Shown here: positions 43,729-60,810 of the stretch, piece by piece
Numbering within the stretch: position 1 is the first letter of the stretch
Layout of the letters: each line of letters starts with the position of its first letter
Source of the DNA: a virus
Reading direction: 5' to 3' (one strand)
IMG/VR virus record: IMGVR_UViG_3300030387_000070
Length of the DNA: 64,000 nucleotides
The notes under the pieces: generated by a model
What the model saw: the letters and a program-made list of their open reading frames with translations, nothing else
Database searches by the model: none
What the model was told of the DNA's origin: nothing
Translations under genes and position numbers: made by a program

Positions 43729-44445
43729 ATGACTGTTGATTTGATCGCGTACACACAGCGAGTTGTTCCTACAAGTGATAAGAATCCTTTAGATATTGTG
43801 GAGGAAGCTGCGAGTATTTGTTACGATTCTTCAATGACTGACGATTATAAGATTGCCAAGGGATGTAAGGCAAGCGGTCACTATTCTGTGCTTGAGCACA
43901 TCAATTTTACGTTTTACGTCAAAGATGTAAGCCGAGCACTTCTGGCGCAGATTAGTCGTCATCGACATATTAGCATGAGCTGCCGCAGCCAGCGTTATTG
44001 CAGCGAGGATGGATTCAAGTATGTGAACCCGTTTACCGGTGAAGATGCTGATGTTTTCGATAATATGATGTCGGACATTGATACCGATTATCAGATTCTC
44101 AAGAAGTATCACAACGCCAAAAACGAAGATGCCCGTGCAGTTCTGCCAAATGCTTGCTGTACAGAGTTTTACATTACGATGAACGCTCGTGCTTTGATTG
44201 AGATGAGTCATCTTCGACTTTGTTCTAGGGCTCAAAAAGAAATCCGCGAGATGTTTACAGAAATGAAGAAGGAAGTTACACAGATTTGTCCTGAAGTAGC
44301 AAACTGGATGGTTCCTTCCTGCGAGGCTAATCCGAAGTATCCGTTCTGCCCAGAGGGTCGTGGTTGCTGTGGCCGTCATCCTCGGTTGGCAGATGTTTAT
44401 AAGCCTATTGAAAAAAACAAGGAGGTTATTGATGCAAACACTTGA
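43729..44445 (+). CDS. thyX: flavin-dependent thymidylate synthase ThyX
   Basis: ThyX signature ISRHRHISMSCRSQRY (RHRxxxxxxxSxR). Confidence 0.8.
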   Translation: MTVDLIAYTQRVVPTSDKNPLDIVEEAASICYDSSMTDDYKIAKGCKASGHYSVLEHINFTFYVKDVSRALLAQISRHRHISMSCRSQRYCSEDGFKYVNPFTGEDADVFDNMMSDIDTDYQILKKYHNAKNEDARAVLPNACCTEFYITMNARALIEMSHLRLCSRAQKEIREMFTEMKKEVTQICPEVANWMVPSCEANPKYPFCPEGRGCCGRHPRLADVYKPIEKNKEVIDANT

Positions 44446-44926
44446 CGAAATTAAGAAGAACGTAGACCATCCAGTCCATTACGGCGGTGCAGACAATCCC
44501 TACGAAGCCATTAAAGTGTTGCGAGAGTGGCAGCTGGATAAAGATGCTTACCTTTGGAATGTTGGTAAGTATCTGAGCCGTGCAGGTCACAAAGATGGCA
44601 ATTCTCAGCTTCAAGATTTGACGAAGGCACGTTGGTATTTGGACTATAAAATCCGGCTTTTAGAGGAACAACAGAAGATTACTGAAAGTGTCGTAGATAC
44701 GCTAAAGAAGATTCCTGATGAGGCTAATGATAAGCTGACTACGATGCCGGATTGCGGAGACGTTTATATTCCTACTATTGGAAAGACAGTAAAAGAATGC
44801 GTTCAGTATGTTCCTCGTCATGCAAAGCCTGACTATACGGATGATTTGGTTTTCCGTCCAGAAATCCATGCTCCAAGCATTGAAACTGCCGTGGTTCCTG
44901 ATTGCGCCGATGAAGTCAAGTTTTAA
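44432..44926 (+). CDS. DUF3310-like phage protein
   Basis: RBS AAGGAGG 6 nt before ATG 44432; HYGGADNPYEAIKVL...GKYLSRAGHK pattern typical of DUF3310. Confidence 0.5.
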   Translation: MQTLDEIKKNVDHPVHYGGADNPYEAIKVLREWQLDKDAYLWNVGKYLSRAGHKDGNSQLQDLTKARWYLDYKIRLLEEQQKITESVVDTLKKIPDEANDKLTTMPDCGDVYIPTIGKTVKECVQYVPRHAKPDYTDDLVFRPEIHAPSIETAVVPDCADEVKF

Positions 44927-44939
44927 GAGGTTTACATAA

Positions 44940-45497
44940 ATGAGATACAACTGGAAGTTACCTATTATCGTTATTTGTGTCGTGCTGATTTCCATTCTTG
45001 GCATGACCTTTATTGTGCAGGGGCCTAAGAACACGGCCATCTCTTATGAAGAGCAGATTCAGGAAGCTAAGTCTGGCATTGAGATTCAGGAGAAGCGCAG
45101 AGCTGATCTGATTCCAAATCTGGTTGAAACCGTCAAGGCTTATGACCAACATGAGTATCAGACTTTGATGGATGTTGTGAATGCTCGTGGCACTTCCGGC
45201 CAGACCGCTCAAGAAATTACGACTCAGATTGCAGCTATTGCGGAAGCATATCCTGAACTGAAGTCTAGCGACAACTACAAGGAGCTTATGAATGAGTTAT
45301 CCGTCACTGAAAATTTGATTGCAAACTATCGTGGCGATTACAATCGCGTCGTGAAGGAATATAAGCAGAGCGTTCGTAAGTTTCCGAACTCCTTTCTGCT
45401 GGGTCTGACTGGATATGAGGTTCAGAATTATGAGTATCTGTCCTATGAGGGGAATGAGGCGGCACCGGCAGTCGGTAACCTTTTTGGAAATCTGTAA
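44940..45497 (+). CDS. lemA: LemA family membrane protein
   Basis: N-terminal TM helix; LemA-like core ELMNELSVTENLIANYRGDYNRVVKEYKQSVRKFPNSFL. Confidence 0.7.
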   Translation: MRYNWKLPIIVICVVLISILGMTFIVQGPKNTAISYEEQIQEAKSGIEIQEKRRADLIPNLVETVKAYDQHEYQTLMDVVNARGTSGQTAQEITTQIAAIAEAYPELKSSDNYKELMNELSVTENLIANYRGDYNRVVKEYKQSVRKFPNSFLLGLTGYEVQNYEYLSYEGNEAAPAVGNLFGNL

Positions 45498-45519
45498 TGC
45501 CGAAATTACTTATCGTGAA

Positions 45520-46221
45520 TTGATCGTCAGTGTTGGTATTGTGTTCATTATGCTGATACTTGGTAGCGTTATCGCTGGAAATATCACCAGAGATTCACTT
45601 GAGCAGAAAAAAGAATATAATACAGCAATTTCGATTGAGTCCGAAAATATGTTCGATTATGGAATGAGAACCAACGTAGGTAATGCTTTTTGCCAAGGCG
45701 CACTAGAAGCAGTAGATACCGTAAGCGATCCACGTATCGACGGTCAGTGGATGTATATCTATTGCGAAGAAAAGCATTACACGATGCATACACGAACTGT
45801 CACTACTACGGATAGCAAAGGCCATACAAAAACAAGAGTCGAAACGTACTGGACTTGGGACTATTACAGCTCAGAAGAGCATAGCTCCAAAAATGTAACG
45901 TTTCTGGGTAAAGAATTTAAGTATGGTGACATCAAAATGCCATCCAGCAAGTACCTGACAACTGTACAAGTCAGTTCTCATGTGAAATTCGAGTTTTATG
46001 TCAAAGATGTTCGTTATGATGGTACATTATACGCGAATTTGAGCGATAAAAGTATACATAATGCACAGTTCATTAAAAACAAAAACATTGAAGAAGCACG
46101 AGATTATATGATTTCTGCAGCTGGTACACGAGTGGTTTGGTTTTATATATTCTGGATCGCATTGATTGTAGCTGTGGTCGGAGTTTTTTATGTGGCCGAA
46201 AATCGTTGGTTGGAAGATTAA
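45520..46221 (+). CDS. hypothetical membrane protein (N- and C-terminal TM helices)
   Basis: Long open frame downstream of lemA; start uncertain (TTG 45520 or an internal ATG). Confidence 0.35.
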   Translation: MIVSVGIVFIMLILGSVIAGNITRDSLEQKKEYNTAISIESENMFDYGMRTNVGNAFCQGALEAVDTVSDPRIDGQWMYIYCEEKHYTMHTRTVTTTDSKGHTKTRVETYWTWDYYSSEEHSSKNVTFLGKEFKYGDIKMPSSKYLTTVQVSSHVKFEFYVKDVRYDGTLYANLSDKSIHNAQFIKNKNIEEARDYMISAAGTRVVWFYIFWIALIVAVVGVFYVAENRWLED

Positions 46222-46232
46222 GAGGTGATTGC

Positions 46233-48428
46233 ATGAAATGTGTGATTAAACGCGATGGAACGAAAGTTCCTTTTGATAAGAGTAAGATTGTAAATGCGAT
46301 TGAGAAGGCGATGACGAATACGACTGGGGGAGTTGATTCTCGCGTGTCTAACGCTATTGCAGACTACATCGCAGACATTCCTGATACGATGTCTGTAGAG
46401 CAGATTCAGGATGTGGTTATTGGTCAGTTGAAAAATAGCCCTCTTTCGGATGTGGCTGACGCTTATAGTCACTGGCGTATTCTTCGGCAGGAGATTCGTG
46501 AGAAGCAGCGAGCGTATGGCGAAATTCTCTCCATCTGTGATGTAGATAACGAGAAGGTCAAGCAGGAGAACAGCAACAAAAATCCTGTTGTGAATAGCGT
46601 GCAGCGCGACTATATGGCTGGCGAAGTCTCCAAAGATCTGAGCTTTAATCTGCTTCTCCCGAAAGATATTGTGGATGCTCACTATGATGGCCGAATTCAT
46701 TTCCACGATTCCGACTATTTTGCTCAGCACATGTTTAACTGCTCGTTGGTCAATCTGGAAGATATGTTGCAGAACGGCACTGTGATTTCTGGTACTGGCA
46801 TTGATAAACCCCACAGCTTTTCTACCGCCTGCAACATTGCCACACAGATCATTGCGCAGGTGGCATCCAATCAGTACGGCGGCCAGAGCATTACGTTGTC
46901 TCATCTGGCTCCTTTTGTGGATGTCTCCCGAAAGAAGATTGCGGGTGAAGTCCATGAGGAGTTTTACGACATGATTCAAAACAATGAGATTGATAAAATG
47001 CCAAATCAGGAGACTATCAATCGAATTGTAGAGAAGCGTTTACATAAAGAAATCGTTGCAGGTGTTCAGACTATTCAGTATCAGGTCATTACTTTGATGA
47101 CCACAAACGGGCAGGCTCCTTTTATTACCATTTTTATGTACCTAGATGAAGTTCCTGAAGGCCAGACCCGTGATGACCTTGCAATTATCATTGAAGAAGT
47201 TCTTCGTCAGCGCATTAAAGGTGTGAAAAATGAAACTGGTGCATGGATTACTCCGGCTTTCCCAAAATTGATTTATGTGCTGGAAGAAGACAACATTCGA
47301 GATAATTCTAAGTATTACTATCTGACTGAACTGGCAGCTAAATGTACTGCCAAGAGATTCGTACCTGACTACATTTCTGAGAAGAAGATGTTTGAGTACA
47401 AAGGTGCTTGCTACCCCTGTATGGGATGTCGCAGCTTCCTGACTCCTGATCGAACCACCGAGAATATTTCTGGTGCCATGAATTGGGAGAAGGGCCACAA
47501 GTATTATGGTCGCTTTAATGCCGGTGTTGTCACCATCAATCTGGTAGATGTTGCTTGTAGCTCTAAGAAGGATATTTCTGAGTTTTGGAAAATTTTTGAT
47601 GAGCGTCTTGAACTGTGCCATCGAGCACTTCAGATTCGGTATAAGCGATTGATGGGTACGCCTTCTGATGTTAGTCCAATTCATTTTCAGCATGGTGCAA
47701 TCGCACGTTTGAAGAAGGGCGAGAAGATTGATAAATTGCTGTTTGACGGATATGCAACCATCAGTTTAGGTTACGCAGGTCTGTATGAATGTGTAAAGTA
47801 TATGACCGGTAAGAGCCATACTGATGATAAGGCAAAACCTTTTGCTCTTGAGATTATGCAACATATGAACGACAAGTGCAGTGAGTGGAAGGTAGCAGAA
47901 AATATTGATTACAGTCTCTACGGCACCCCGCTGGAATCCACCACCTACAAGTTCGCCAAGTGCCTGCAAAAGCGGTTTGGCATCATTCCAGATGTAACCG
48001 ACCATGATTACATCACCAATAGCTATCATGTCGTGGTTCGTGAGCATATTGATGCATTCAAGAAGCTGAAGTTTGAGTCTGAGTTTCAGCAGCTGTCTCC
48101 CGGCGGAGCCATCTCGTATATCGAGTGCCCTAATATGACCAACAACATTCCTGCTGTGATGAGTGTCATCAAATACATCTACGACACTATTATCTACGCA
48201 GAGCTGAACATCAAGTCTGATTATTGTCAGGTTTGTGGTTATGACGGCGAGATTAAGATTGTCGAGGACAATGGTAAGCTTGTTTGGGAATGCCCAAATT
48301 GTGGTAATCGAGACCAGAATAAACTGAATGTTGCACGACGTACCTGCGGATTTATTGGGACTCAGTTTTGGAATCAGGGGCGGACGCAAGAGATTCGAGA
48401 TCGAGTAGTTCATCTGAGCGATAACTAA
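46233..48428 (+). CDS. nrdD: anaerobic ribonucleoside-triphosphate reductase NrdD (class III RNR)
   Basis: N-terminal ATP-cone (VIKRDGTKVPFDKSKI); C-terminal zinc-ribbon cysteines (CQVCGY...CPNCGNRDQ) followed by the glycyl-radical motif RRTCGFIG. Confidence 0.8.
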   Translation: MKCVIKRDGTKVPFDKSKIVNAIEKAMTNTTGGVDSRVSNAIADYIADIPDTMSVEQIQDVVIGQLKNSPLSDVADAYSHWRILRQEIREKQRAYGEILSICDVDNEKVKQENSNKNPVVNSVQRDYMAGEVSKDLSFNLLLPKDIVDAHYDGRIHFHDSDYFAQHMFNCSLVNLEDMLQNGTVISGTGIDKPHSFSTACNIATQIIAQVASNQYGGQSITLSHLAPFVDVSRKKIAGEVHEEFYDMIQNNEIDKMPNQETINRIVEKRLHKEIVAGVQTIQYQVITLMTTNGQAPFITIFMYLDEVPEGQTRDDLAIIIEEVLRQRIKGVKNETGAWITPAFPKLIYVLEEDNIRDNSKYYYLTELAAKCTAKRFVPDYISEKKMFEYKGACYPCMGCRSFLTPDRTTENISGAMNWEKGHKYYGRFNAGVVTINLVDVACSSKKDISEFWKIFDERLELCHRALQIRYKRLMGTPSDVSPIHFQHGAIARLKKGEKIDKLLFDGYATISLGYAGLYECVKYMTGKSHTDDKAKPFALEIMQHMNDKCSEWKVAENIDYSLYGTPLESTTYKFAKCLQKRFGIIPDVTDHDYITNSYHVVVREHIDAFKKLKFESEFQQLSPGGAISYIECPNMTNNIPAVMSVIKYIYDTIIYAELNIKSDYCQVCGYDGEIKIVEDNGKLVWECPNCGNRDQNKLNVARRTCGFIGTQFWNQGRTQEIRDRVVHLSDN

Positions 48429-48899: not shown

Positions 48900-49751
48900 A
48901 TGAAGAAATTTATGGCAATTTTTGTTGCATTCCTCGTTGCAGTTGGCGCAGTGCTTTGTACCGAGCGGGTACATACTGGTTATGTTGGTGTTGTTTATTC
49001 CGCGAATGGGGTCGAGCAGCAGACTATTTCTCAGGGCTGGCACTTTATGAGTCCTCTGAAGCATGTATCTGAGTTCCCGATTATTCAGCAGCGAGTGGTA
49101 TTTTCTAACGCTCCGTCTGATTATGGCGCAAAGGAACACGCAGATTGGCACATTGATGCTCCTGCTAATGGTGGTACGATTGCAATCAACTTGACTGTCA
49201 ATTATAACTTCCTGCCGGAGCATGTTGTTGAACTGTATACCAAGTTTGGTGGCATGGATGGTGAGAGCCTGATGGAGAGCAAAATCCAGAACGACATTAT
49301 TGCTTATGTTAAGGAAGTCACTCCTCAGTTCAGTGTCATGCAGATTTATTCTGATGATCGCGCAGGTGTTAATACTGCAATCACCAACTATCTGAATGAG
49401 AAGCTGACCGCAGAGTATGGAATCAATGTCTCTTCTGCGCTGATTGTTGACGCACAGCCTGACGATACCCTGATGCAGAAGATTCGTGCCAAGGAGCAGG
49501 CGAAGCAGGATGCAGAGATTGCAGAGCTGAATAAGCAGACCGCTCTAGCTCAGGCGGAGACTGACAAGGTTAAGGCGCAGACGGAAGCTGACGTTAAGAT
49601 GATTGAAGCACAGGCCGAGGCTGATGCAAATAAGGTGCTTTCCGAGTCTATTACTCCTGAGCTGATCCAGATGAAGGAAGCAGAAGCTCGTCTGAAGCAT
49701 GGTTGGATCACCGTTCAGGGTGCAGATACAGTCGTTACCAAGGGTGAGTAA
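48900..49751 (+). CDS. SPFH/band-7 (prohibitin/HflC-like) domain membrane protein
   Basis: N-terminal TM helix; SPFH-like core and a C-terminal coiled coil (AKEQAKQDAEIAELNKQ...). Confidence 0.6.
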   Translation: MKKFMAIFVAFLVAVGAVLCTERVHTGYVGVVYSANGVEQQTISQGWHFMSPLKHVSEFPIIQQRVVFSNAPSDYGAKEHADWHIDAPANGGTIAINLTVNYNFLPEHVVELYTKFGGMDGESLMESKIQNDIIAYVKEVTPQFSVMQIYSDDRAGVNTAITNYLNEKLTAEYGINVSSALIVDAQPDDTLMQKIRAKEQAKQDAEIAELNKQTALAQAETDKVKAQTEADVKMIEAQAEADANKVLSESITPELIQMKEAEARLKHGWITVQGADTVVTKGE

Positions 49752-49784: not shown

Positions 49785-50045
49785 ATGAAACGAATGTTTG
49801 GCATGATGCCCAGTAGTGAAGTTGAATTGCGTGAAAGTTACAAAGATAATTTTGGACTGACCGTAAGAATTGAAGCTGGCAAGCATGGATGGACTATTAT
49901 GTGGGCAGATGGTGATTCTGATTACAAGGATGTCGATGCAGAATCCGCTATTGAAAATTTTAATGAAGCATTTGAGACTGCACAGAATAGGATTGGAAAA
50001 CTCGTAAAAGTGCGTTGTTGTGGTGAATGTTGCGGTGAGTGCTAA
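49785..50045 (+). CDS. hypothetical protein with C-terminal CCGECCGEC
   Basis: ORF. Confidence 0.35.
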   Translation: MKRMFGMMPSSEVELRESYKDNFGLTVRIEAGKHGWTIMWADGDSDYKDVDAESAIENFNEAFETAQNRIGKLVKVRCCGECCGEC

Positions 50046-50078
50046 GAGGTCTTATAAAATGAAAATTTTTGAAAGAAG

Positions 50079-50306
50079 GTGATTAACATAAACGCATGGA
50101 AGAAATTCTTTAAGGCACTTGGTTCTTTTCTTGGAATTGTTCTTATTCTGGTGGCTACATATTTTATCTCGTGGATTACCACGATCGGTATTATCTGGCT
50201 GATTTTTAAGCTGCTGAATATTACGTTTACCATCAAGGTCGCAACAGGTATTTGGTTGGCACTTATTTTACTTGAATGTTTCATTAAGGGCAATCGAAGT
50301 AAATAA
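50079..50306 (+). CDS. hypothetical two-TM membrane protein
   Basis: GTG start; hydrophobic. Confidence 0.3.
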   Translation: MININAWKKFFKALGSFLGIVLILVATYFISWITTIGIIWLIFKLLNITFTIKVATGIWLALILLECFIKGNRSK

Positions 50307-50346
50307 ATCAACTAGTAGGGTGGGCGTGGTGGCATGAAAGGAGCTA

Positions 50347-50526
50347 TATGGATTATTGGTCTGTTGAAGTAATGTATTACGATGACGGGCATCAGGCGTT
50401 CAATACATATATGGTAAAAGCACAGGATCAAAATGACGCCATGAACAAAGCACATCATCGTTTTGAAAAATCTCATCCCGGTACGAGCTGCATGATTCAG
50501 AATGTAGAAAAGGCAGGTGGCTGAGA
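50347..50526 (+). CDS. hypothetical small protein (59 aa)
   Basis: RBS GAAAGGAG upstream. Confidence 0.3.
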
Positions 50527-50738
50527 TGGAAGACGAAAATATCGTTTATGAAAACATCAATTCAAAAGACGATGATGAAAAATTTGTTCTAGCGCCTTGG
50601 GGTTGCCTTAATTGTGCATTCAAGGATTTCGGTTTAGAACTTCCTAAAATCTCTAGAAAGATGGCAGAAGCTTTAATGGATGATTTCTTTGAAATTATGG
50701 AAATGGCTGGCATTATAGAGAGGGAAAATGAATCTTGA
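50517..50738 (+). CDS. hypothetical acidic protein
   Basis: ORF. Confidence 0.3.
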   Translation: MAEMEDENIVYENINSKDDDEKFVLAPWGCLNCAFKDFGLELPKISRKMAEALMDDFFEIMEMAGIIERENES

Positions 50739-50808
50739 TAAAAGTGCCGTTCTATCGTGAAATTTCATCAAATTTATAACGTAGATATGTTAAATAATAG
50801 GAGGCAAA

Positions 50809-51207
50809 ATGAAGAAGTGGACAGGAAGGCTGCTCAAAGCAGAAGGCTACGAAATCCGAAATGCAGAAATCAGAAATGTTAGTCTTAGTATGGCAGATCA
50901 TGGAGTTTTGACTTCCTATTTGACATTGGATGGTCACGAATGGGGCGTTTGCTATGGCGGCTATGTTCTCGGTAAGGGATATGTCGGGAGTAAGACTTTT
51001 GAAGGATATGCTTCTGGCATGGAGGCCATTATGCGAATCATGGATACTGTTGGTTGCGACAAGTACGAAAGTATGAAAGGCAAGTATGTCCGTGTAGCAA
51101 CCAAGGGATGGGGTAGTACGGTAAAAATTATCGGCAATATTCTTGAGGATAAGTGGTTTGATTATGGATCTTTCTTTGATGACAAAGAGAAAGAGGAGGC
51201 TGGCTAA
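50809..51207 (+). CDS. hypothetical protein
   Basis: RBS TAGGAGG upstream. Confidence 0.4.
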   Translation: MKKWTGRLLKAEGYEIRNAEIRNVSLSMADHGVLTSYLTLDGHEWGVCYGGYVLGKGYVGSKTFEGYASGMEAIMRIMDTVGCDKYESMKGKYVRVATKGWGSTVKIIGNILEDKWFDYGSFFDDKEKEEAG

Positions 51208-51208
51208 T

Positions 51209-51577
51209 ATGGATGCGGATGAGTTCATTATTAACGTAATTGCAAAGAAAAACAACGGAACAATTGAACTTTCTGTTCCTGATGATGTATTCAATCAGGC
51301 TGAACGTATTCTTTTGAAAAACGAACAATGCGTATTCTGCAAGACTCTCCCAGCGGAAGCCTTTGGCAGTGATTCGTGGATTAGCGTAAAAGAAGATTTG
51401 CCCAAAACTAATCCAAAGACTTGTGAAAGCGAGCCTGTTCTTGCTTATGACCCAGAAATGGGGAAGGCGGTAGTATTTTATCACGAGGATGGGCACTGGT
51501 ATGATATTGTTGACCGTAATTGGTGTCGTGTAGAGCCAACTCATTGGATGCTTTTGCCAGATGACCCACAGGAGTAA
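51209..51577 (+). CDS. DUF551-like phage protein
   Basis: RBS AAGAGGAGG upstream; C-terminal WISVKEDLP ... VEPTHWMLLPDDP matches DUF551 hallmarks. Confidence 0.55.
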   Translation: MDADEFIINVIAKKNNGTIELSVPDDVFNQAERILLKNEQCVFCKTLPAEAFGSDSWISVKEDLPKTNPKTCESEPVLAYDPEMGKAVVFYHEDGHWYDIVDRNWCRVEPTHWMLLPDDPQE

Positions 51578-51582
51578 TTGAC

Positions 51583-52840: not shown

Positions 52841-53036
52841 GATTGTTTGGATGCTTGTTAAATCGTATATCGTTTTGATTCTTACAGCCGCAATTATCCG
52901 CTCTGAAGAAATTCTATACGATTTCTTACGTAATACTGTAATGTATGACATCAAACTTAAATATGTAAAGTGGACTGTCGTTGCACTGAATATTCTTATT
53001 ATCGTATGTGTGAGTCTATGGACAAAGGTGATTTAA
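52830..53036 (+). CDS. hypothetical membrane protein
   Basis: Two TM helices. Confidence 0.3.
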   Translation: MLTEIVWMLVKSYIVLILTAAIIRSEEILYDFLRNTVMYDIKLKYVKWTVVALNILIIVCVSLWTKVI

Positions 53037-53037
53037 A

Positions 53038-53475
53038 ATGGATACTAGCTTTAATTTAAAGCACGTTCCCGGAAGCTTTGCATGGATTATTGAGCGAGAG
53101 AATGCCGACAAAAACTGTAATAAATGTGATACCAACGGAAATGTGAATATAACATTCTTTGACGGTACTCAGAAAAAGTGGCGTTGCCCAATTTGCCTTG
53201 GATACAAAAAGGTTGTAAAAGACGTATATCGAATCAAAAAATGTAAAATCAAGAGAGTAAACATCGGAGCAAGGATTAACGAAGATGGCAATTTAACGGT
53301 AGAAGAAGAATCTATTCAACTAGAAGGAACTAACATAAGGGACAATATCGATCCTGATTTTGAGTATTACATTCGTAATATTTATGACACAGAAAGTGAT
53401 GCGAAAATTGCGGCAAACGAAATCAATAAAGCACGAGGGAACACTGATGAATTATATGAAGATTGTCCCATGTGA
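53038..53475 (+). CDS. hypothetical Cys-containing protein
   Basis: ORF; CNKCD...CPIC. Confidence 0.35.
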   Translation: MDTSFNLKHVPGSFAWIIERENADKNCNKCDTNGNVNITFFDGTQKKWRCPICLGYKKVVKDVYRIKKCKIKRVNIGARINEDGNLTVEEESIQLEGTNIRDNIDPDFEYYIRNIYDTESDAKIAANEINKARGNTDELYEDCPM

Positions 53476-54001
53476 TATAGCGAATGGTCCGGGCGTAAGA
53501 GTCACGTTATTCTGTGCTGGTTGCAATCACCATTGCCCCGGTTGCCAGAATCCTACTACATGGGACCCGAATGGTGGTCAGCCATTCACAGATGAAACGC
53601 TTGATAAAATTGTAGATTTACTTCGACCTGATTATATTCAGGGGCTTACGCTTACTGGTGGAGACCCACTGTATCCAGAGAACAGGGAGATGATTTGCAA
53701 AATTCTAATAAGAGTCAGACACGAGTTTGAAGGAAGCAAAGACATTTGGATGTGGACTGGATATACATGGGAAGAATTGATTCAACAGGCGGCAGAAGAA
53801 TTGAAATATCAAACTATTCCGACAACGGTAACAATTATTCGAAACATAAACGTGCTAGTCGATGGTCCATATATCGAATCTAAACGAGATATCTCTTTGC
53901 CGTACATGGGGAGTTCCAATCAACGTGTAATCGGCTGTAATAAGAGTTTTGCTTTACGAAGACCAGTCCTTTGGTGGACTCCAGAAGAGAAAGGAAAATA
54001 A
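53447..54001 (+). CDS. nrdG: anaerobic ribonucleotide reductase activating protein NrdG (radical SAM)
   Basis: N-terminus MNYMKIVPCDIANGPGVRVTLFCAGCNHHCPGCQN carries the NrdG-type cysteine cluster; GGDPL motif present. Confidence 0.7.
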   Translation: MNYMKIVPCDIANGPGVRVTLFCAGCNHHCPGCQNPTTWDPNGGQPFTDETLDKIVDLLRPDYIQGLTLTGGDPLYPENREMICKILIRVRHEFEGSKDIWMWTGYTWEELIQQAAEELKYQTIPTTVTIIRNINVLVDGPYIESKRDISLPYMGSSNQRVIGCNKSFALRRPVLWWTPEEKGK

Positions 54002-54002
54002 T

Positions 54003-54551
54003 ATGGATTTAGGAAACGTAACTAAGTATTTTTATGGGCATCACGGAACTGTAGAGGCTTGTTCCAGTGTTTATCGTCCAAACATCAAAATCAATAAACT
54101 GCACGAAGATGCTTATCTGCCGACTTATGGTTCTAAAAATGCTGCTTGCGCAGACCTTTATGCCTATATCGGTTTTGATGACGCAACGATGGTAAACAAG
54201 AATGGCGATCGCTGCATTATGATTCAGCCGGGTGAGACAGTTAAGGTACATACCGGTTTGCGGATGGCTCCGCCTGAAGGTTGGTATGTCGCTATTTATG
54301 CTCGCAGCGGTTTAGCAACAAAGCAGGGTTTGGCTCCTGCGAATAAAACAGGGATTTGTGATCAGGATTACCGTGGAGAATATATTGTGGCACTACATAA
54401 TCATTCTAATATCCCTCAAATGATTACTCATGGCGACCGTATTGCTCAGATGGCAGTTGTTCCGTTCTGGCAGGCTGATTTTGAAGAAGTTTCCAAATTG
54501 GACGAAACTGAGCGTGGAGCGGGCGGGTTTGGATCTACTGGAAAACAGTAA
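54003..54551 (+). CDS. dut: dUTP diphosphatase (dUTPase)
   Basis: dUTPase motifs ARSGL, GICDQDYRGE and GDRIAQM. Confidence 0.8.
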   Translation: MDLGNVTKYFYGHHGTVEACSSVYRPNIKINKLHEDAYLPTYGSKNAACADLYAYIGFDDATMVNKNGDRCIMIQPGETVKVHTGLRMAPPEGWYVAIYARSGLATKQGLAPANKTGICDQDYRGEYIVALHNHSNIPQMITHGDRIAQMAVVPFWQADFEEVSKLDETERGAGGFGSTGKQ

Positions 54552-55024
54552 TGGAGAGAATTATGGGAAAGACAATTGATACATCCGAGCTTTTATATCG
54601 GATGGGCAAGTATGCAGAAATCGATGTTGGAGAAGAAGAACATAACGCGTTTATGCATTTCATGCTTCTTTTGACTCGCACAATTGAGAAGATGCCGAAT
54701 GCTGCATTGACTCATAAAAATCCGATTGATGATGAGATTATGGAAAATCAGTACAAGTTGGTGAACGCAATCTCACTTGTGACTGGTCGCACTAGAAACG
54801 ACGGCTGGTATCTTACTTGGATTGGCATGACCATGAAGATTGTACGGTTGAAGAGTGGAGAATCAGCTGGTTTCCGGTACATCAAAGATAATGAGGGGCA
54901 TGATTATCCGGGCGCAATGCACACATCTTGTGTTGTTGATTATTACATCTCAAGTGACAAGAAAAATATTATTGTCCAGACTGAGAACACTATTTATAAA
55001 TTTGAAAAAATTGAGGAGGACTAA
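54551..55024 (+). CDS. hypothetical protein
   Basis: ORF. Confidence 0.35.
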   Translation: MERIMGKTIDTSELLYRMGKYAEIDVGEEEHNAFMHFMLLLTRTIEKMPNAALTHKNPIDDEIMENQYKLVNAISLVTGRTRNDGWYLTWIGMTMKIVRLKSGESAGFRYIKDNEGHDYPGAMHTSCVVDYYISSDKKNIIVQTENTIYKFEKIEED

Positions 55025-55027
55025 ATT

Positions 55028-55333
55028 ATGGCTAAGTATTTTTATGTTTACAATATCGCCGGTGTCGAGGATTCTATTGTAAAGATGTTCAACACTGATA
55101 CTGGCGTAATGGGTGAGAAAAGCGTCAAGAAGGATCGTATGGATGGGTTTATTGATGGTATCAAGACGAGTGGCTTTGTTTTGAACAAAGAGCTGGCAGA
55201 AGCTGACGTTGCAGAGGCCGAAGCAAAGCGTGTTCTGGCAGAGAAAATGACAGCTTATCAGGCAGCTCGCGATGACTATCACAACAAGAGTGAGACTCTG
55301 AAGAAGGTCAAGGCCAAGTACGGTATTAAATAA
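55028..55333 (+). CDS. hypothetical protein
   Basis: ORF. Confidence 0.35.
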   Translation: MAKYFYVYNIAGVEDSIVKMFNTDTGVMGEKSVKKDRMDGFIDGIKTSGFVLNKELAEADVAEAEAKRVLAEKMTAYQAARDDYHNKSETLKKVKAKYGIK

Positions 55334-55345
55334 GGAGAACACATA

Positions 55346-55657
55346 ATGAAGTATTATACGGTTGAATCTCATGCTGAGAAAGAAGCTCCATTTGGAATTG
55401 CATGGCAAGTAAAGCTGTTTGACGAGCATACTCTTTTGGAGGAATACGACCATATCTTTTATAACGAGATTGCTGGCTACTGCAAGTGTCTTGAAGATAT
55501 AGGATTCGTGGATGAGCGATGGACTTTTAAAAGGCCACAGGACGAAGACATCCATGACTTTGTTAAAATGTGCATAAAGAAAAAGGAGAATGCACTTCAG
55601 ACGGAGTGGTATGAAATGACCGGTAACTGGCCGAATGGCGCAGTGACTCTCGATTAA
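55346..55657 (+). CDS. hypothetical protein
   Basis: RBS AAGGAGAACAC upstream. Confidence 0.35.
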   Translation: MKYYTVESHAEKEAPFGIAWQVKLFDEHTLLEEYDHIFYNEIAGYCKCLEDIGFVDERWTFKRPQDEDIHDFVKMCIKKKENALQTEWYEMTGNWPNGAVTLD

Positions 55658-55686
55658 AAGGTAAATTTTACGGAGGAAGTGATTCT

Positions 55687-56019
55687 ATGGCATACGCAGG
55701 CAAAAATGGATACGATAAAGACACGGATATTTTATTTCCGATAGCTACTAATATTATTGGATGGGTAGGTAAAACAGATAGAGAAGAGATTCTTGATCTC
55801 AGTTTTGAACGAATTTCCCTTTATCAAGTAGGGAAGATCCTTGAAAAACTTGGCTATCAGAATATTGATATGAGCGAAAACGGATGGGAAATGGATTACT
55901 GGTGGGAGTACGAACTTGCCAATAACGCCAATGATATTCCAAACCTTCCTTGTCGAGTTCAAATTAAAGGAAGTTGCGCAGAGGGCACAATGATGCTTAA
56001 TGTTTTAGATAACGAATAA
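55687..56019 (+). CDS. hypothetical protein
   Basis: RBS GGAGGAAGTG upstream. Confidence 0.35.
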   Translation: MAYAGKNGYDKDTDILFPIATNIIGWVGKTDREEILDLSFERISLYQVGKILEKLGYQNIDMSENGWEMDYWWEYELANNANDIPNLPCRVQIKGSCAEGTMMLNVLDNE

Positions 56020-56045
56020 CTCTAATAGTAGTGGTGGGTGGGAGG

Positions 56046-56300
56046 AATAAATGTATGAAACGGAATATCACAATAAAACAGACTTGCAATTGTAATGGTG
56101 ATAACTGTACTCAAATTGGAATCATTCGCAACGATGAAGTATATGTCATGCAAACAAGTTCTCCGAAAAGAGAAGACCCAGCGGAATTTACGTGCAGTAT
56201 GCCTGAACAGAAACATTGTTTAAAAAATATCCTTTATAAGATTGTAGAAAAACTAAATAGTCTTATTGGATGGATTATAGATACGTTTAACGATATTTGA
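56046..56300 (+). CDS. hypothetical Cys-rich protein
   Basis: ATG 56046 after GGGAGGA. Confidence 0.3.
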   Translation, partial: NKCMKRNITIKQTCNCNGDNCTQIGIIRNDEVYVMQTSSPKREDPAEFTCSMPEQKHCLKNILYKIVEKLNSLIGWIIDTFNDI

Positions 56301-56313
56301 TCAAGGAGATTGT

Positions 56314-56532
56314 ATGAAAGCACATATTCGAGAAGAAAAGAAAACAACTCCATTAAAACTTGGTGAGGGAATATTACTTCAAGAGAAAGATGGAAAAATT
56401 TACAAGGTTTGCGATACAGTAGAATATGATGAGACGCATACCGACGATGAAGTTATAAAGGTTGCTTTATCTGAAGAAAATATGATTGTTGGATCGAACT
56501 TTTTTAATACATCGTTTGTGTTTACAGATTGA
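56314..56532 (+). CDS. hypothetical protein
   Basis: RBS AAGGAGA upstream. Confidence 0.35.
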   Translation: MKAHIREEKKTTPLKLGEGILLQEKDGKIYKVCDTVEYDETHTDDEVIKVALSEENMIVGSNFFNTSFVFTD

Positions 56533-56541
56533 GGTGTAGAT

Positions 56542-56772
56542 ATGCACAAGACTGATAGTTTGAAAAATCCGGTAATCGTATTTCCATGTAAGAATTGCGG
56601 TTGCACAACTAAGATTCGAGTGGCTTCTTTTGAAAATCCTGATTTGGACATTCCTGAGAATAATGTGATTGCGTGCTATAGATGTAGAGCGGAAGTTGCT
56701 GGGTCTGAGTTTATTTCTTGGAAAGAAGCAACTAAAACTATTTTTACCGTGGAGGTGCCAGATGGCGATTAA
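56542..56772 (+). CDS. zinc-ribbon paralog 1
   Basis: CKNCGC...CYRC. Confidence 0.35.
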   Translation: MHKTDSLKNPVIVFPCKNCGCTTKIRVASFENPDLDIPENNVIACYRCRAEVAGSEFISWKEATKTIFTVEVPDGD

Positions 56773-56995
56773 GATTATTGAACACAAACATGAGCGAAAG
56801 AAAATAAGATATGCCGTTAAATTCCTTTGTAAATGTGGATGCGTATTTTGGGCTGATGACGAAGATACGAAAATTCCAAAAGAATTTGATTGGACTGAAT
56901 ACTCACCGGTTAAACAGGCGATTTGCCCAGAATGCAACACAGAAGTTTCATCTTGTTTATCTGCAGTTCCAAGAGAAAAGATTTTTGTGGATTGA
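56762..56995 (+). CDS. zinc-ribbon paralog 2
   Basis: MAIKIIEHKHERKKIRYAVKFLCKCGCVFWADD...CPEC. Confidence 0.4.
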   Translation: MAIKIIEHKHERKKIRYAVKFLCKCGCVFWADDEDTKIPKEFDWTEYSPVKQAICPECNTEVSSCLSAVPREKIFVD

Positions 56996-57003
56996 GGTGC
57001 CAA

Positions 57004-57303
57004 ATGGCTATACGAATTGAAGTCCATGGTAAAGAAAGAGAAAAAACAAAATACTCAGTAGAGTTTAGATGTTCTAGCTGCGGTTGCGAGTTTTGGGTTG
57101 ATGCAGATTCTCTTGGAGAGTTCAAGCCAGCCAATTATTGTGATTTAAAGTATAACTGTCCTGAATGTGATTCTAGTTCTTATCCGGTTGATATTATGGA
57201 GAACAGCCGTATCTTTAATGAGCACAAATGGAAACCTGTATTTTGGCAGATTATCGAATCTCCATTTCATCGGTATTGTAGAATTTGCGATAAAGAAAAA
57301 TAA
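57004..57303 (+). CDS. zinc-ribbon paralog 3
   Basis: MAIRIEVHGKEREKTKYSVEFRCSSCGCEFWVDAD...CPEC. Confidence 0.4.
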   Translation: MAIRIEVHGKEREKTKYSVEFRCSSCGCEFWVDADSLGEFKPANYCDLKYNCPECDSSSYPVDIMENSRIFNEHKWKPVFWQIIESPFHRYCRICDKEK

Positions 57304-57358
57304 TATGCTAAAGCAAGCTTATTTTTAAGAATGTATGTTTTAAAGTGTGGTGAACGTA

Positions 57359-57757
57359 ATGGAAGTTTGGGAACTAAATCTTCTGCATGATGGGGATATA
57401 GAACAAATATGTATGTGCTCTGATGAACAACCACTATTTGAAATGGCAGTCGATAGGGCATTTAATTTATTTGCAAAAATAAATGAGTGGCCTCTCAAAC
57501 AAGAAAATTGTCATGCTTCCGTAAGTGTAAACGACAAGCTTCATTCTATTTTAGTGAAGATTAGCACACAAGACGATAATACAGTTGAACTTTGGGAGTA
57601 TAAATGGGAATGTATTTATAAAGAACCTCATGAAGACAAGTCTAGTGACACCTTACTTCAGGAAGTTGTTTCTCGTGTACGAAACATTCCAAAACTATTT
57701 TATGATTGGGCAGAGAATTTCTGCTGGAAAGCGAGAAAAAATGGCTATTTGCAGTAA
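57359..57757 (+). CDS. hypothetical protein
   Basis: ATG 57359 after GTGGTGA. Confidence 0.3.
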   Translation: MEVWELNLLHDGDIEQICMCSDEQPLFEMAVDRAFNLFAKINEWPLKQENCHASVSVNDKLHSILVKISTQDDNTVELWEYKWECIYKEPHEDKSSDTLLQEVVSRVRNIPKLFYDWAENFCWKARKNGYLQ

Positions 57758-58085
57758 ATGTCTACATAAAGAAGTATGCGCTTTTAGGAAGCAAACAAAA
57801 GATAGTTGCGCCGAATTTTGCGAAGACTTCCTCGGTTGGGTCAAGGTCATGGATGAGCGTCCGATTCCTTTAAAAGACAACATTATAATAAGCGATTATG
57901 GTAATTCATTTATCGGATATTACGATTACGATAAGCGAGATCGAGAGTACTTTTACGATGTAAACGCCCTCGAAAAAATTTATGAATGTCCATCTTACTG
58001 GCTGAAAGGACTTAATTTGCATGAGCAGGAAAAAATCGCTAACAGAGAATACAAGTGTAGGAAATCCAATATGGGACAAGTATGA
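57741..58085 (+). CDS. hypothetical Cys-rich protein
   Basis: ATG 57741 within track ORF 57585. Confidence 0.3.
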   Translation: MAICSKCLHKEVCAFRKQTKDSCAEFCEDFLGWVKVMDERPIPLKDNIIISDYGNSFIGYYDYDKRDREYFYDVNALEKIYECPSYWLKGLNLHEQEKIANREYKCRKSNMGQV

Positions 58086-58389
58086 GATTGTGGGAGTCTC
58101 TTTTGACACATCAAATAATCCAAACAAGAAGTTCTTCAAGCCGGTTTACATAATGCCGGATGGAGATGTCGTAGCTTGCGATGGGACTCACGATTTCAAT
58201 TATGATCCTAACAAAGAAATTCAAATTGTTCCAAAGGAATCTATCCCATTTTATGGCAAGCCAACAGAGCCTGCTGTTTATTGTGATGATGATGGCAACT
58301 GTGTGGATGTTGACGGTAATCCTCTCGGTATGAAATGGGACGACTCTATGGAGAAACAGTTCCGAACGGTAAAAACTAGACTTTTATGA
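58021..58389 (+). CDS. hypothetical protein
   Basis: ORF; start uncertain. Confidence 0.3.
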   Translation: MSRKKSLTENTSVGNPIWDKYEIVGVSFDTSNNPNKKFFKPVYIMPDGDVVACDGTHDFNYDPNKEIQIVPKESIPFYGKPTEPAVYCDDDGNCVDVDGNPLGMKWDDSMEKQFRTVKTRLL

Positions 58390-58399
58390 GGTAGATTGA

Positions 58400-58861
58400 A
58401 TGGACGATAGATTTTCAATCGAAAAGAATCACTGGGAAATACAAAATCCAGAATGGGAAAGCTATTCTCATTTCATCTGCACTAAAGACCATTATTGGAC
58501 TGGTGTACACGGTATCAGCAACTATTTTCTTCAATATAAGAATTTTGGCAGAAGTAAACCAGTCGAACGATTTTCTGTAGAATGGCCGAACTTCGTAGAG
58601 CACATGTGGTTTATCCATTGGCGTGGCCCATGGGATTATATTTTTGCTTCATATAAATTATCCGAAATCAAACGATTTTTAGAACTTGATATTGATGCTA
58701 TTAAAAAGAACCATTGGCCGGATGGCCGCTGCACTTGCTACAGTGTTTATGACTACGTGACGAAAAAATGGTACTATTTTAAAATCGAAAATTTGGGAAC
58801 ATTTTATGGATGCGCGTGGCCGTTGGGTGATGATACAGGGGAGGTGATTAAATGTGACTAA
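58400..58861 (+). CDS. hypothetical Trp-rich protein
   Basis: ORF. Confidence 0.35.
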   Translation: MDDRFSIEKNHWEIQNPEWESYSHFICTKDHYWTGVHGISNYFLQYKNFGRSKPVERFSVEWPNFVEHMWFIHWRGPWDYIFASYKLSEIKRFLELDIDAIKKNHWPDGRCTCYSVYDYVTKKWYYFKIENLGTFYGCAWPLGDDTGEVIKCD

Positions 58862-59345
58862 ACAAATAGGCTATTATAAATCCGACTGGTATATTATGGG
58901 CATCGACGGTAAATACAACAACGCCTGTATCTCACATACAGAATCGCAGCTTCGATATACAGTTCCAAGGTCGCCAGAATGGACCATCAATGGATTGGGT
59001 TTTGCTTACATTAGAGAACATGGATTTGAAGATTATCCTGAACTCTATGGTATTGTATTCTATGATATGGAGTGGTGGCGACGAAAACGCTATCAGGGTG
59101 ACTTTTATGTAGAGATACCAATTTGCGATTTATGTGCAGATACCTTTCATTTAAAATGGCGTTATAAGGAATTTCGTGTACATCAGTGGTCCAACTTGAG
59201 AAAAGAAACAAAGTGGGTGAAAGGCAGAAGCAACTACACTATTTGTGAGCTCGCCCATAAATTACCACATGAAGAGTTTATTGAGTATTTGAAAGACAAC
59301 GGCATCTATATTGTAAACGAAAGTGGTGTTGAACTTGGATGGTAA
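58854..59345 (+). CDS. hypothetical Trp-rich protein
   Basis: GTG start 7 nt after GGGGAGGTG. Confidence 0.35.
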   Translation: MTKQIGYYKSDWYIMGIDGKYNNACISHTESQLRYTVPRSPEWTINGLGFAYIREHGFEDYPELYGIVFYDMEWWRRKRYQGDFYVEIPICDLCADTFHLKWRYKEFRVHQWSNLRKETKWVKGRSNYTICELAHKLPHEEFIEYLKDNGIYIVNESGVELGW

Positions 59346-59376
59346 AGATGTAAAGCTTTCTCTTGGTGAGAAAATC

Positions 59377-59742
59377 TTGTTATCAATCATTGTTATATTC
59401 GCAATTCTCTTCATTGGATATTTTGTATGGGTGATTGGCGACGGTATCTATCGTCATTATAATCCGATTGAGTGGACTGCCACTATTGAAGAACTGGAAT
59501 CTGGCATCTACGGATATACATCTACTATGGTATCTAATGTCCCAGCAGAAAATTATGAGATGCTTACGGTTCTTTGTAATGGCACTTATATGAATATCAA
59601 AGGACATGTAAAAATTGTATATGATAGCAACGCTCCATATATCGAATATAAGTCAACCAATACTGTTAATACTGACTCTGTAATAATTCATGTTCAAAAA
59701 GGACAGATTAAAAATAATGGAGTTAGTACAGTAACGAGGTGA
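59377..59742 (+). CDS. hypothetical membrane-anchored protein
   Basis: TTG 59377 after GGTGAG, or GTG 59323; N-terminal TM helix. Confidence 0.3.
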   Translation: MLSIIVIFAILFIGYFVWVIGDGIYRHYNPIEWTATIEELESGIYGYTSTMVSNVPAENYEMLTVLCNGTYMNIKGHVKIVYDSNAPYIEYKSTNTVNTDSVIIHVQKGQIKNNGVSTVTR

Positions 59743-59782
59743 TTCTTATGGAAGAATTAGGGTTTTATAAAGGAGGGCGCTA

Positions 59783-59953
59783 ATGAAGGATTTTAACTTT
59801 TATAGAGCAAAGTATATTCGTGATGGGAAATGGCGAATTGAGTTTTTCGATAAAGACGAAAAGTATGTTGGTTCTATTTATAAAGTAGGGTCGGACGGCG
59901 TCCGTGGGTATTGCCAGTGTTTAAATGATCTTGGCTACAAAGCAATTTTATAA
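59783..59953 (+). CDS. hypothetical small protein (56 aa)
   Basis: RBS AAAGGAGGG upstream. Confidence 0.3.
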   Translation: MKDFNFYRAKYIRDGKWRIEFFDKDEKYVGSIYKVGSDGVRGYCQCLNDLGYKAIL

Positions 59954-59982
59954 AACTTGGATTCTTATAAAGGAGGTTCACA

Positions 59983-60810
59983 ATGATTATTGATTGCAAA
60001 TCTATTGCACAAGATATCAAAGATAAAATCAAGAATATTATCGCAGAGGCCGATTACACTCCTGTTTTACATATTTATCAAGTAGGGGATAATCCTGCGT
60101 CTAATGCTTATATTAGAGGTAAATTGCGTGACTGTGAAGAGGTGGGGATCGAAGTAGAACTTATTAAACTGCCAGAAAATATTACTGAAGATGAATTGAA
60201 TAACAAGATCTTAGAAGATTATAATTGGGAATATGTGAACGGTATCATTGTTCAGCTTCCGTTGCCAAAACATATCAATCCTAAAAATATCTACATTCCA
60301 GACGCAGTTGATGTTGATGGATTTAATTCTACATCCAAATTTCAGCCTTGCACTCCGCTGGGCGTTATGAAGATTTTTGACTCCATCGGTTACGATCTGG
60401 ATGGCAAGAATGTGCTTGTGTGTGGTCAATCTGATATCGTAGGTCGTCCGTTGGTCAATATGCTGATTAAGCGGCACTGTAATGTAATCTCTGTGAATAG
60501 TACGGGTTCCGCCATGAAAGCCACTGCCATCGGATTTGGAATAGTCAATGTTATTATTTCCGCCGTTGGTAAGCGTGACTTTATTTCGACGTTTGATTTA
60601 TTTGATACGGATGTTTGCATCGACGTTGGTATCAACTATGACGAGAACGGAAAGCAGCACGGCGATTGTACTGATGCTGTTTATGATATGAAGGATGTCA
60701 AAGTAACACCTCGTATCGGCGGAGTTGGCCTTATGACTCGCGCTATGCTCTTATATAATGTATGTGTGGCGAAATACGGGGCAGAGAAGATGGAAGAGGT
60801 GATTGAATGA
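59983..60810 (+). CDS. folD: bifunctional methylenetetrahydrofolate dehydrogenase/cyclohydrolase FolD
   Basis: RBS AAAGGAGG upstream; FolD pattern VQLPLPKHI...DAVDVDGF...QPCTPLGV...GKNVLVCGQSDIVGRPL...NVISVNSTGS. Confidence 0.8.
   Translation: MIIDCKSIAQDIKDKIKNIIAEADYTPVLHIYQVGDNPASNAYIRGKLRDCEEVGIEVELIKLPENITEDELNNKILEDYNWEYVNGIIVQLPLPKHINPKNIYIPDAVDVDGFNSTSKFQPCTPLGVMKIFDSIGYDLDGKNVLVCGQSDIVGRPLVNMLIKRHCNVISVNSTGSAMKATAIGFGIVNVIISAVGKRDFISTFDLFDTDVCIDVGINYDENGKQHGDCTDAVYDMKDVKVTPRIGGVGLMTRAMLLYNVCVAKYGAEKMEEVIE

Follow-up and report, generated by a model that had tools for sequence, protein, structure and literature searches.

Why would a large temperate phage carry its own gene for FolD, an enzyme of folate one-carbon metabolism, and what would the enzyme do there? 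The question is raised by a 64,000-nt stretch of DNA, IMGVR_UViG_3300030387_000070 (the whole stretch is called the window below), in which positions 43729–60810, a span of 17,082 bp, encode on the + strand ThyX, a DUF3310 protein, LemA, NrdD, an SPFH protein, NrdG, Dut and FolD. An earlier note, prepared from the letters alone, had named these eight genes and placed them within 17 kb, and both statements were confirmed, every identity passing its Pfam cut-off at the place given. The note missed that the region forms the far right end of a prophage, where host DNA takes over at ~61.2 kb; instead of a free phage genome, the window holds a prophage's right arm and the junction with its host. We propose that the region makes up the distal portion of the replication and nucleotide arm of a large temperate phage, where it probably serves as a dTTP supply line in which FolD feeds ThyX. 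Genes were identified with the curated Pfam gathering cut-offs, PHROG profiles and motifs read in the translations. The gene at the center of the question is the following:

59983–60810, + strand: FolD, short-loop form, 275 aa, methylene-tetrahydrofolate (methylene-THF) dehydrogenase / methenyl-THF cyclohydrolase (Pfam THF_DHG_CYH 8.5e-28, THF_DHG_CYH_C 1.7e-33)

Both domains of FolD lie well above their Pfam cut-offs (97.4 bits against 32.8 for the catalytic domain and 115.6 bits against 27 for the NAD(P)-binding domain), and the protein also matches phrog_7320 (5e-58) and, in the PDB, 3l07 (4.9e-39), with 31–36% identity to bacterial FolD and to human MTHFD1/2. The translation contains the motif S40-x2-Y43-x3-K47, VQLPLP and DVDG. 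Ser40, Tyr43, Lys47 and Asp112 are invariant in alignments of 31 and 62 sequences, and Gln91 is nearly invariant in the smaller alignment and invariant in the larger one; the Rossmann motif GxSxxxGxP, PCTP and Ser173 are likewise retained. A failure to align over the NAD(P)-binding or cyclohydrolase motifs was looked for; instead, both domains align and the catalytic residues are kept. An AlphaFold2 model built from the 62-sequence alignment (predicted local distance difference test score, pLDDT, 92; predicted template-modeling score, pTM, 0.90) superposes on FolD and MTHFD2 structures in Foldseek with template-modeling (TM) scores of 0.85–0.88, and the top 50 PDB matches of the model are all FolD or MTHFD (TM 0.80–0.88). 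Judged by its residues, its modeled structure and the selection acting on it, the protein is a genuine, selectively maintained phage enzyme with intact catalytic residues and the FolD fold.

That the gene is full length and phage-borne, as had been proposed, is borne out by the presence of both domains, a phage-like GC content, relatives in attP form and purifying selection. More than 120 variants at 93–100% identity occur in gut assemblies, on contigs of up to 805 kb, and IMG/VR holds 141 relatives on viral contigs mostly of 100–150 kb, in which FolD lies 1.4–2.5 kb from one end. In most relatives a tyrosine integrase gene follows ~265 bp after FolD; a minority have the Xis-type gene of the window instead. 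These integrases are of several types, 39–43% identical to the integrase of the virome contig L001 (MT835556), which is syntenic with the window over 40.2–60.8 kb and continues from FolD into its integrase and then into a different high-GC host flank. Without exception FolD is the final cargo gene ahead of the integration module (the order being FolD-int-att or FolD-xis-attP-int), and it has been retained with at least four different integrases, beside different flanks, and on attP-form contigs that carry no host DNA. Presence was counted with Dut as the anchor, which avoids selecting on FolD itself: FolD was found in 70 of the 80 related loci, 2.3–6.5 kb downstream of Dut, and in seven of the ten loci that lack it the contig stops less than 2.3 kb beyond Dut, the other three having 4.5–6.0 kb of sequence there. 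Pairwise Nei-Gojobori comparison with 81 relatives gave a median ratio of nonsynonymous to synonymous divergence (dN/dS) of 0.11 at a median dS of 0.74, and the GC content of FolD is 39.9%, compared with 40.8% for the phage and 57.7–60.9% for the host. By these comparisons FolD is effectively a core gene of the phage family, long resident and under purifying selection.

The end of the phage lies directly beyond FolD and comprises the following features, the last two of which belong to the host:

60807–61037, + strand: HTH_17 (MerR/Xis-type) DNA-binding protein, 76 aa, probable excisionase (PF12728 on the identical gene of contig L003)
61038–61224, no strand: attachment region (placed by the attP and attR forms of relatives and by the GC rise)
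61250–61283, + strand: intrinsic terminator of the host target gene, on the host side of the junction (13-bp stem, 10 GC pairs, T-run)
61436–63994, − strand: host P-type ATPase of the copper type, 852 aa (L003 gene call, with HMA, E1-E2_ATPase and Hydrolase domains)

GC content in the window is 36–45% up to ~61.1 kb and 60–67% beyond; the phage value of 40.8% refers to 1–61037, and the host range combines 57.7% for a 6.9-kb host flank with 60.9% for the host copA region. The gap between 1–61037 and the flank at 61301–64000 is unusually large for a prophage. GC content at third codon positions (GC3) differs in the same way, 0.43 in phage genes against 0.76 in host copA, and seven tRNA genes at 19002–20635 (Leu-CAA, Leu-TAA, Leu-TAG, Pro-TGG, Gln-TTG, Gly-TCC and Met-CAT) fit the codon use of an AT-rich phage; the tRNA set and the GC3 contrast suggest the same compositional mismatch between phage and host as does A+T content.

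The HTH_17 gene, whose start overlaps the FolD stop (ATGA), gives weak matches to phrog_1877 and phrog_66, 'excisionase', and directly precedes attP in the relatives L008 and L075. Between it and the host lie two pairs of inverted 9-mers at 61049–61099 (GTGCCCACA / TTGCCCACA ... TGTGGGCAA / CGTGGGCAA) and, at 61150–61224, a GC-rich copy, ~70 nt long, of a host gene's 3′ end. This copy spans the last 24 codons (...DEARHGRGFEGLLKRYFNTEV, followed by the stop), possibly the final helix of a ferritin-like or rubrerythrin protein, and the phage/host crossover falls within ~61160–61222. After this stretch L008 (11040–12887) and L075 (11040–12739) run on into AT-rich phage DNA and represent the attP form; the attR form is represented by the window, L003 and L078, which run on into host DNA. 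In the unintegrated form represented by L008, the gene order is FolD, the Xis-like gene, attP, a 440-aa tyrosine integrase (phrog_1, 2e-67), endolysin and tail-fibre proteins. The attP and attR forms, together with the integrase, lysis and tail genes beyond attP, identify the element from its sequence as a temperate tailed phage; FolD lies inside it, and on integration at the 3′ terminus of a host gene the phage supplies a replacement 3′ end. This test covered the att core, integrase, Xis-type gene, and lysis and tail genes.

On the host side, L003 is an independently assembled contig, 99.98% identical to the window, and continues after the ATPase into CsoR, ribosomal protein L28, ScpA and other host genes. 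The host intergenic segment between att and copA differs by an indel of ~300 bp (L003 11316–11617, window 61298–61331) in assemblies that are otherwise 99–100% identical. The host terminator at 61250–61283 is the sole strong terminator-like site within 43–61.5 kb. Exact protein look-ups of the host-flank proteins returned no organism names, and a nucleotide search of named phages matched three unannotated virome contigs only, with no cultured relative found. One relative is a prophage on a contig binned to an uncultured Faecalibacterium, and the GC content of F. prausnitzii is 56.3–57.2% (PMC13432834), against 57.7% for the host flank. The binned relative and the GC content suggest that the host is probably a Faecalibacterium-like anaerobe of ~58% GC. 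An anaerobic setting, which had been proposed for the phage, fits both such a host and the class III ribonucleotide reductase.

The genes that would make up the supply line upstream of FolD, and the small open reading frames (ORFs) among them, are as follows:

43729–44445, + strand: ThyX, flavin-dependent thymidylate synthase, 238 aa (Pfam Thy1 9e-50, 169.5 bits; PHROG 85 7e-43)
44432–44926 (inferred start; mechanical ORF from 44360), + strand: DUF3310 protein (Pfam DUF3310 3.5e-11)
46236–48428 (likely start; ORF from 46137), + strand: NrdD, class III anaerobic ribonucleotide reductase (Pfam NRDD 3e-189, ATP-cone 1.5e-21, Gly_radical 9e-17)
49785–53475, + strand: block of small ORFs between NrdD and NrdG (weak DUF551 match only, from 49983, in the precomputed Pfam data for L003)
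53447–54001 (ORF from 53360; start as in the identical L003), + strand: NrdG, radical-SAM activase of NrdD, 184 aa (Fer4_12 3e-47, Radical_SAM 1e-10)
54003–54551, + strand: Dut, dUTPase of the trimeric type, 182 aa (Pfam dUTPase 6e-20, 71.8 bits; phrog_135 3e-57)
54551–59953, + strand: ~17 tightly packed small ORFs between Dut and FolD (no Pfam families)

Several gene starts, among them those listed for the DUF3310 protein, NrdD and NrdG, lie later than the mechanical ORF starts. The ThyX signature RHRxxS...SxR is present in the translation (RHRHISMSCRSQR; 'SRHRHISMSCRSQRY'). The best PHROG matches of the DUF3310 protein are annotated 'nucleotide kinase' (phrog_236 3e-19; also 11324, 1689 and 4472), and the protein is possibly a T7 gp1.7-like nucleotide kinase, a type that phosphorylates dTMP and dGMP. 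NrdD (630.7 bits for NRDD and 62 for Gly_radical) has the glycyl-radical motif RRTCGF and a zinc ribbon of the form CxxC...CxxC; NrdG (160.8 bits for Fer4_12) has its CxxxCxxC motif as CNHHCPGC; and Dut has DQDYRGE, of the GxxDxDYRG type, together with a C-terminal GGFGSTG.

NrdD ends 5,018 bp before NrdG begins. The earlier figure of ~5 kb was therefore right, but the separation is not the oddity it was taken for: spacing among relatives is 2.1–5.8 kb with a median of 4.3 kb, so that a gap of this size is the family norm. The block of small ORFs in this interval varies in length among relatives and is absent in L001, the exception in which NrdG comes after NrdD with only an HNH-type ORF between them. 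In this part of L001 (MT835556.1, 13149–16966), NrdD is 1000 aa long and contains an intein-like insertion of ~290 aa after 'AQHMHNC', and its gene has a further insertion of ~270 bp near the 3′ end; the window NrdD has none of the L001 insertions. The small ORFs at 54551–59953 gave no Pfam families on the L003 gene calls or in direct scans, and no terminator-like site was found on the + strand of this interval. Two of them (56669–56995 and 56923–57303) are paralogous, sharing '...CQMAI(K/R)I...' and Cys-rich, zinc-ribbon-like motifs, and represent a local tandem duplication. A scan of the whole window at the Rfam gathering thresholds returned six tRNAs only, with no riboswitch or other RNA upstream of FolD, and scans for promoter consensus sequences near FolD found no enrichment over shuffled sequence and no terminator separating FolD from the operon upstream.

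In the pathway that we favor, NrdD, activated by NrdG, would reduce NTPs to dNTPs without oxygen, Dut would convert dUTP to dUMP, and ThyX would use dUMP and 5,10-methylene-THF to form dTMP and THF; the DUF3310 protein encoded beside ThyX may then phosphorylate dTMP, like T7 gp1.7. FolD would equilibrate 10-formyl-THF, methenyl-THF and methylene-THF, and most likely would replenish methylene-THF from formyl-THF, which the host makes from formate, while ThyX drains the methylene-THF pool. Because ThyX yields THF rather than dihydrofolate (DHF), a DHFR would be unneeded, and the limit would be the one-carbon load on the cofactor. No DHFR, GlyA, Fhs or PurN was found among the scanned window ORFs, a scan that covered ORFs shorter than 150 aa in 1–43 kb only in part. 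With 59% A+T in the phage and ~42% in the host, the thymidylate need per base pair is ~1.4 times that of the host. A need for extra thymidylate is therefore plausible; the direction of flux, the coupling of FolD to ThyX and the timing of FolD expression are our extrapolation from gene content.

Several observations weigh against a supply line of this kind. FolD lies 5.4 kb and ~17 ORFs from Dut and 15.5 kb from ThyX, so that 'module' is a loose term for the arrangement. The enzyme is reversible, and the direction of flux cannot be read from sequence. Its fixed place beside the integration module would also fit a cargo gene expressed during lysogeny. Literature searches gave catalogue mentions only, and no expression, enzymatic or metabolite work on any phage FolD was found. 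The protein itself also departs from its relatives: a segment of ~10 residues (consensus FHPxNxGxLxxG) is missing between DVDG and PCTP (DVDGFNSTSKFQPCTP), the GGVGPMT motif of FolD reads GGVGLMTR in the window with an arginine (R253) that is invariant in the clade, the window family has GQS for GRS, Gln149 replacing a nearly invariant arginine, and NSTG for the usual CHSKT, and the confidence of the structural model is lowest at residues 171–190. The loss of the loop, the GQS and NSTG sequences and the low confidence at 171–190 mean that cofactor preference, or even bifunctionality, may differ. Of the positions that contact the NADP 2′-phosphate, the arginine of GRS and the Ser/Arg of HS(K/R)T, the window FolD retains Ser173. 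E. coli FolD (1B0A) likewise lacks the arginine of GRS, and as it does, the NAD/NADP specificity of the window FolD is unreadable from sequence.

Two other assignments of the enzyme's role keep its chemistry and change its purpose. FolD could work mainly in the oxidative direction, converting serine-derived methylene-THF to 10-formyl-THF for purines and for formylation of fMet-tRNA, which is the usual direction of this reversible enzyme in cells growing on serine. The phage would also need extra dATP (A makes up 31% of the + strand), FolD is not adjacent to ThyX, and a guanylate kinase gene lies near FolD in two other phage lineages. We nevertheless consider this direction unlikely, since no purine-synthesis or formyltransferase genes were found among the scanned window ORFs, the other phage-encoded steps converge on dTMP, and ThyA or ThyX is encoded near short-loop FolD in two of six other lineages. 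A role in lysogenic conversion, with FolD a moron-type gene expressed from the prophage to aid host one-carbon metabolism, would explain why the gene without exception closes the cargo region, next to the integration module, which is the classic position of conversion genes; the phage also occurs very commonly in gut assemblies as a prophage, on contigs of up to 805 kb. Yet FolD shares its strand with the long operon upstream and is tightly packed against it, its stop codon overlaps the start of the xis-like gene, there is neither an upstream terminator nor an enrichment of promoter-like sites, and elsewhere the gene sits within replication and nucleotide clusters rather than at ends; such a role is improbable.

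The remaining explanations concern the protein and the assembly. Functional divergence of the short-loop protein, toward NAD specificity, a single activity or another folate or pterin substrate, would account for a loop that the clade lacks throughout and every one of the 27 solved FolD/MTHFD sequences has, for the clade-invariant R253 of GGVGLMTR, the lost arginine at 149 and NSTG for CHSKT, and for the low model confidence at residues 171–190. All catalytic residues known from the E. coli and human enzymes are kept, however, as are GxSxxxGxP and Ser173; the model superposes at TM 0.85–0.88, and strong purifying selection acts across the whole gene, and we give this explanation little credence. 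Finally, FolD could be a host gene linked to the phage only through the prophage boundary or a chimeric assembly, since it lies within 0.4 kb of the GC jump and the ~70-nt host-like attP core might in theory lead an assembler to fuse contigs of phage and host. Against this, the GC content of FolD is phage-like, the low-GC Xis-like gene and phage arm sites intervene between FolD and the host DNA, the gene is kept with at least four integrases, with varied flanks and on attP-form contigs, and the same junction was recovered in the independent assembly L003. Its GC content, the attP-form relatives and the L003 junction effectively exclude a host or chimeric origin. Among these explanations a dTTP supply line with FolD feeding ThyX is the one that we retain.

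The short-loop form is not confined to this phage. In a search of 1.84 billion cluster representatives, FolD fell in a group of short-loop proteins of 259–293 aa at 42–49% identity, and a profile of this group matches 364 IMG/VR contigs. The 27 solved FolD/MTHFD sequences in the PDB are all 9–12 residues longer between DVDG and PCTP than the window FolD, and no member of the short-loop form is among them. Members of the group are almost all metagenomic, mostly on contigs of ≤180 kb, with few NCBI entries, one of them labelled Caudoviricetes. That the clade is exclusive to phages was considered and dropped, as one of its members is encoded on a 563-kb scaffold among neighbours that look cellular. 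Near short-loop FolD in six other phage lineages are genes for NrdD (three lineages), NrdG (two), dUTPase (two), ThyA (one), ThyX (one), guanylate kinase (two) and NT5C (two), as well as NAD-dependent ligase and Pol III alpha; in such lineages FolD lies inside replication and nucleotide clusters, away from ends. In the loci L168, L171, L176, L184, L204 and L224, around position 8000, two of the six have a class-V aminotransferase gene (Aminotran_5, 6.5e-77), and an NAD-dependent DNA ligase gene is found near FolD. In a further lineage with a large-phage-like context (L247), NAPRTase, NAD synthase and NUDIX genes adjoin a FolD of 324 aa. The short-loop proteins may conceivably form a subfamily of their own, borne largely by phages, whose properties are altered, with for instance a relaxed NAD/NADP preference or a changed coupling of the two activities; we put this forward only tentatively. 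If it is true, short-loop FolD together with ThyX may give large AT-rich temperate phages a self-contained methyl supply for thymidylate, independent of host control of FolD.

Interleaved with the nucleotide genes are three genes for membrane proteins:

44940–45497, + strand: membrane protein of the LemA family, opening an optional cassette of two genes (Pfam LemA 1e-33; phrog_1383)
45415–46221, + strand: 268-aa membrane protein, start uncertain, partner of LemA (no Pfam match; phrog_3886 1.9e-67 over the full profile)
48900–49751, + strand: SPFH/Band-7 membrane protein with a coiled-coil tail, optional (Pfam Band_7 2e-23; phrog_200 2e-54)

LemA and SPFH had been described as a pair, possibly forming a membrane-remodelling or superinfection-exclusion unit. 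The pairing does not hold: the two genes are 3.4 kb apart, the partner of LemA is the 268-aa protein, with which it occurs together in 47 of 47 loci, and SPFH is independent of both. LemA is present in 46 of the 71 relatives in which its slot is covered, and SPFH in 58 of 77, always between NrdD and NrdG; 39 loci have both cassettes, 15 SPFH only, 7 LemA only and 10 neither. The LemA plus 268-aa cassette and SPFH are thus separate optional insertions, outside the nucleotide pathway. The cassettes are 95–99% identical among relatives (loci L087–L166), whereas the core genes NrdG and FolD are 74–86% identical, which suggests that the optional cassettes have spread horizontally within the phage family in recent times. 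Superinfection exclusion found no support in a search of the PADLOC defence models (E ≤ 0.01), which gave no match for LemA, the 268-aa protein, SPFH or a 110-aa protein, and LemA and SPFH were accordingly dropped as a known defence system. They resemble bacterial LemA and SPFH/Band-7 proteins in domain content (LemA and Band_7 in Pfam) and in having a transmembrane segment at the N terminus, and differ from them in being optional cassettes that are gained and lost independently.

How far FolD and its neighbours depart from known systems differs by level. Compared with bifunctional FolD/MTHFD (E. coli 1B0A, Francisella 3L07, Campylobacter 3P2O, human MTHFD1-DC and MTHFD2), the phage protein shares both Pfam domains and SxxYxxxK, VQLPLP, DVDG, PCTP and GxSxxxGxP, at 31–36% identity and TM 0.85–0.88, and is distinguished by the absence of the ~10-residue loop after DVDG and by GGVGLMTR, GQS and NSTG. 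A folD gene in a phage is not itself new, although novelty had been implied: the family is represented in PHROGs and in lists of auxiliary genes of gut viruses, and the window protein is identical to nr DAO62146.1, 'MAG TPA: 5,10-methylene-tetrahydropholate dehydrogenase [Caudoviricetes sp.]'. The survey of phage genomes for folD that had been suggested was run by tblastn and returned 54 phage records, including Lak megaphages; the FolDs of named phages (Lak and Enterococcus records) are mostly of the long-loop form, judging by aligned length, and 33–37% identical, whereas the window family is short-loop. That phages carry NrdDG, Dut and a thymidylate synthase as a module is textbook knowledge. 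With classical dNTP modules (T4-type NrdD/NrdG, Dut and Td/ThyX) the window shares the anaerobic reductase and its activase, a dUTPase and a thymidylate synthase, and it differs in that the genes are dispersed over 17 kb among small ORFs. In jumbo phages a thymidylate synthase is paired with a folate-recycling enzyme, as ThyA with DHFR (PMC7824862); the folate partner in the window is FolD, which would act on the one-carbon load and not on the redox state of the cofactor. What is modestly new is the conserved place by attP, the evidence of selection, and the occurrence of the short-loop form in the window and in other large phages; beyond the FolD question, the region is of an ordinary, well-understood phage nucleotide-metabolism type.

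Human gut assemblies very often contain this phage family, and its probable host genus, Faecalibacterium, is health-associated. K01491 (FolD), with thyX and thyA, ranks within the 50 auxiliary genes found most often in disease-associated viral operational taxonomic units (OTUs), is commoner in control-enriched viral OTUs, many of which are predicted Faecalibacterium phages, and is accompanied by K00390 as another frequent gut-virus auxiliary gene (PMC11938785). The window has ThyX, FolD, a C5 DNA methylase and a phosphoadenosine phosphosulfate (PAPS)-reductase-like gene, four auxiliary genes reported to be enriched in control-associated gut viruses, and the phage family may contribute to that signal. 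Establishing the function of the phage FolD would turn a catalogue entry into a mechanism, and it would also bear on whether phages that are compositionally unlike their hosts must bring their own supply of one-carbon units and thymidylate.

The rest of the arm, 1–43 kb, encodes replication functions, among them a Pol III alpha-like polymerase, RecJ, DnaB, an ExoV/Dda-like helicase, a Pnkp/RNA ligase and an anti-repressor. The polymerase (33324–37340, 1338 aa) aligns to ~1036 profile positions of phrog_405 over 1319 of its residues; with fewer profile positions than residues aligned, it may carry an insertion of a few hundred residues. A 737-aa fusion of polynucleotide kinase-phosphatase and RNA ligase (16671–18884; phrog_8238, 1e-224) is encoded directly upstream of the tRNA array, a neighbourhood that suggests tRNA repair against host anticodon nucleases. 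The C5 cytosine DNA methylase is split between 20791–21450 and 21516–22262, which correspond to the N- and C-terminal parts of PF00145; the split could reflect a frameshift, an insertion or a real division of the gene. The PAPS-reductase-like domain is also divided, over two overlapping ORFs at 26194–26670 and 26645–27409. Two tyrosine-recombinase-like genes (9136–9963 and 15668–16594; Phage_integrase 1e-15 and phrog_5830 integrase 3.5e-11) lie in the middle of the arm, far from att.

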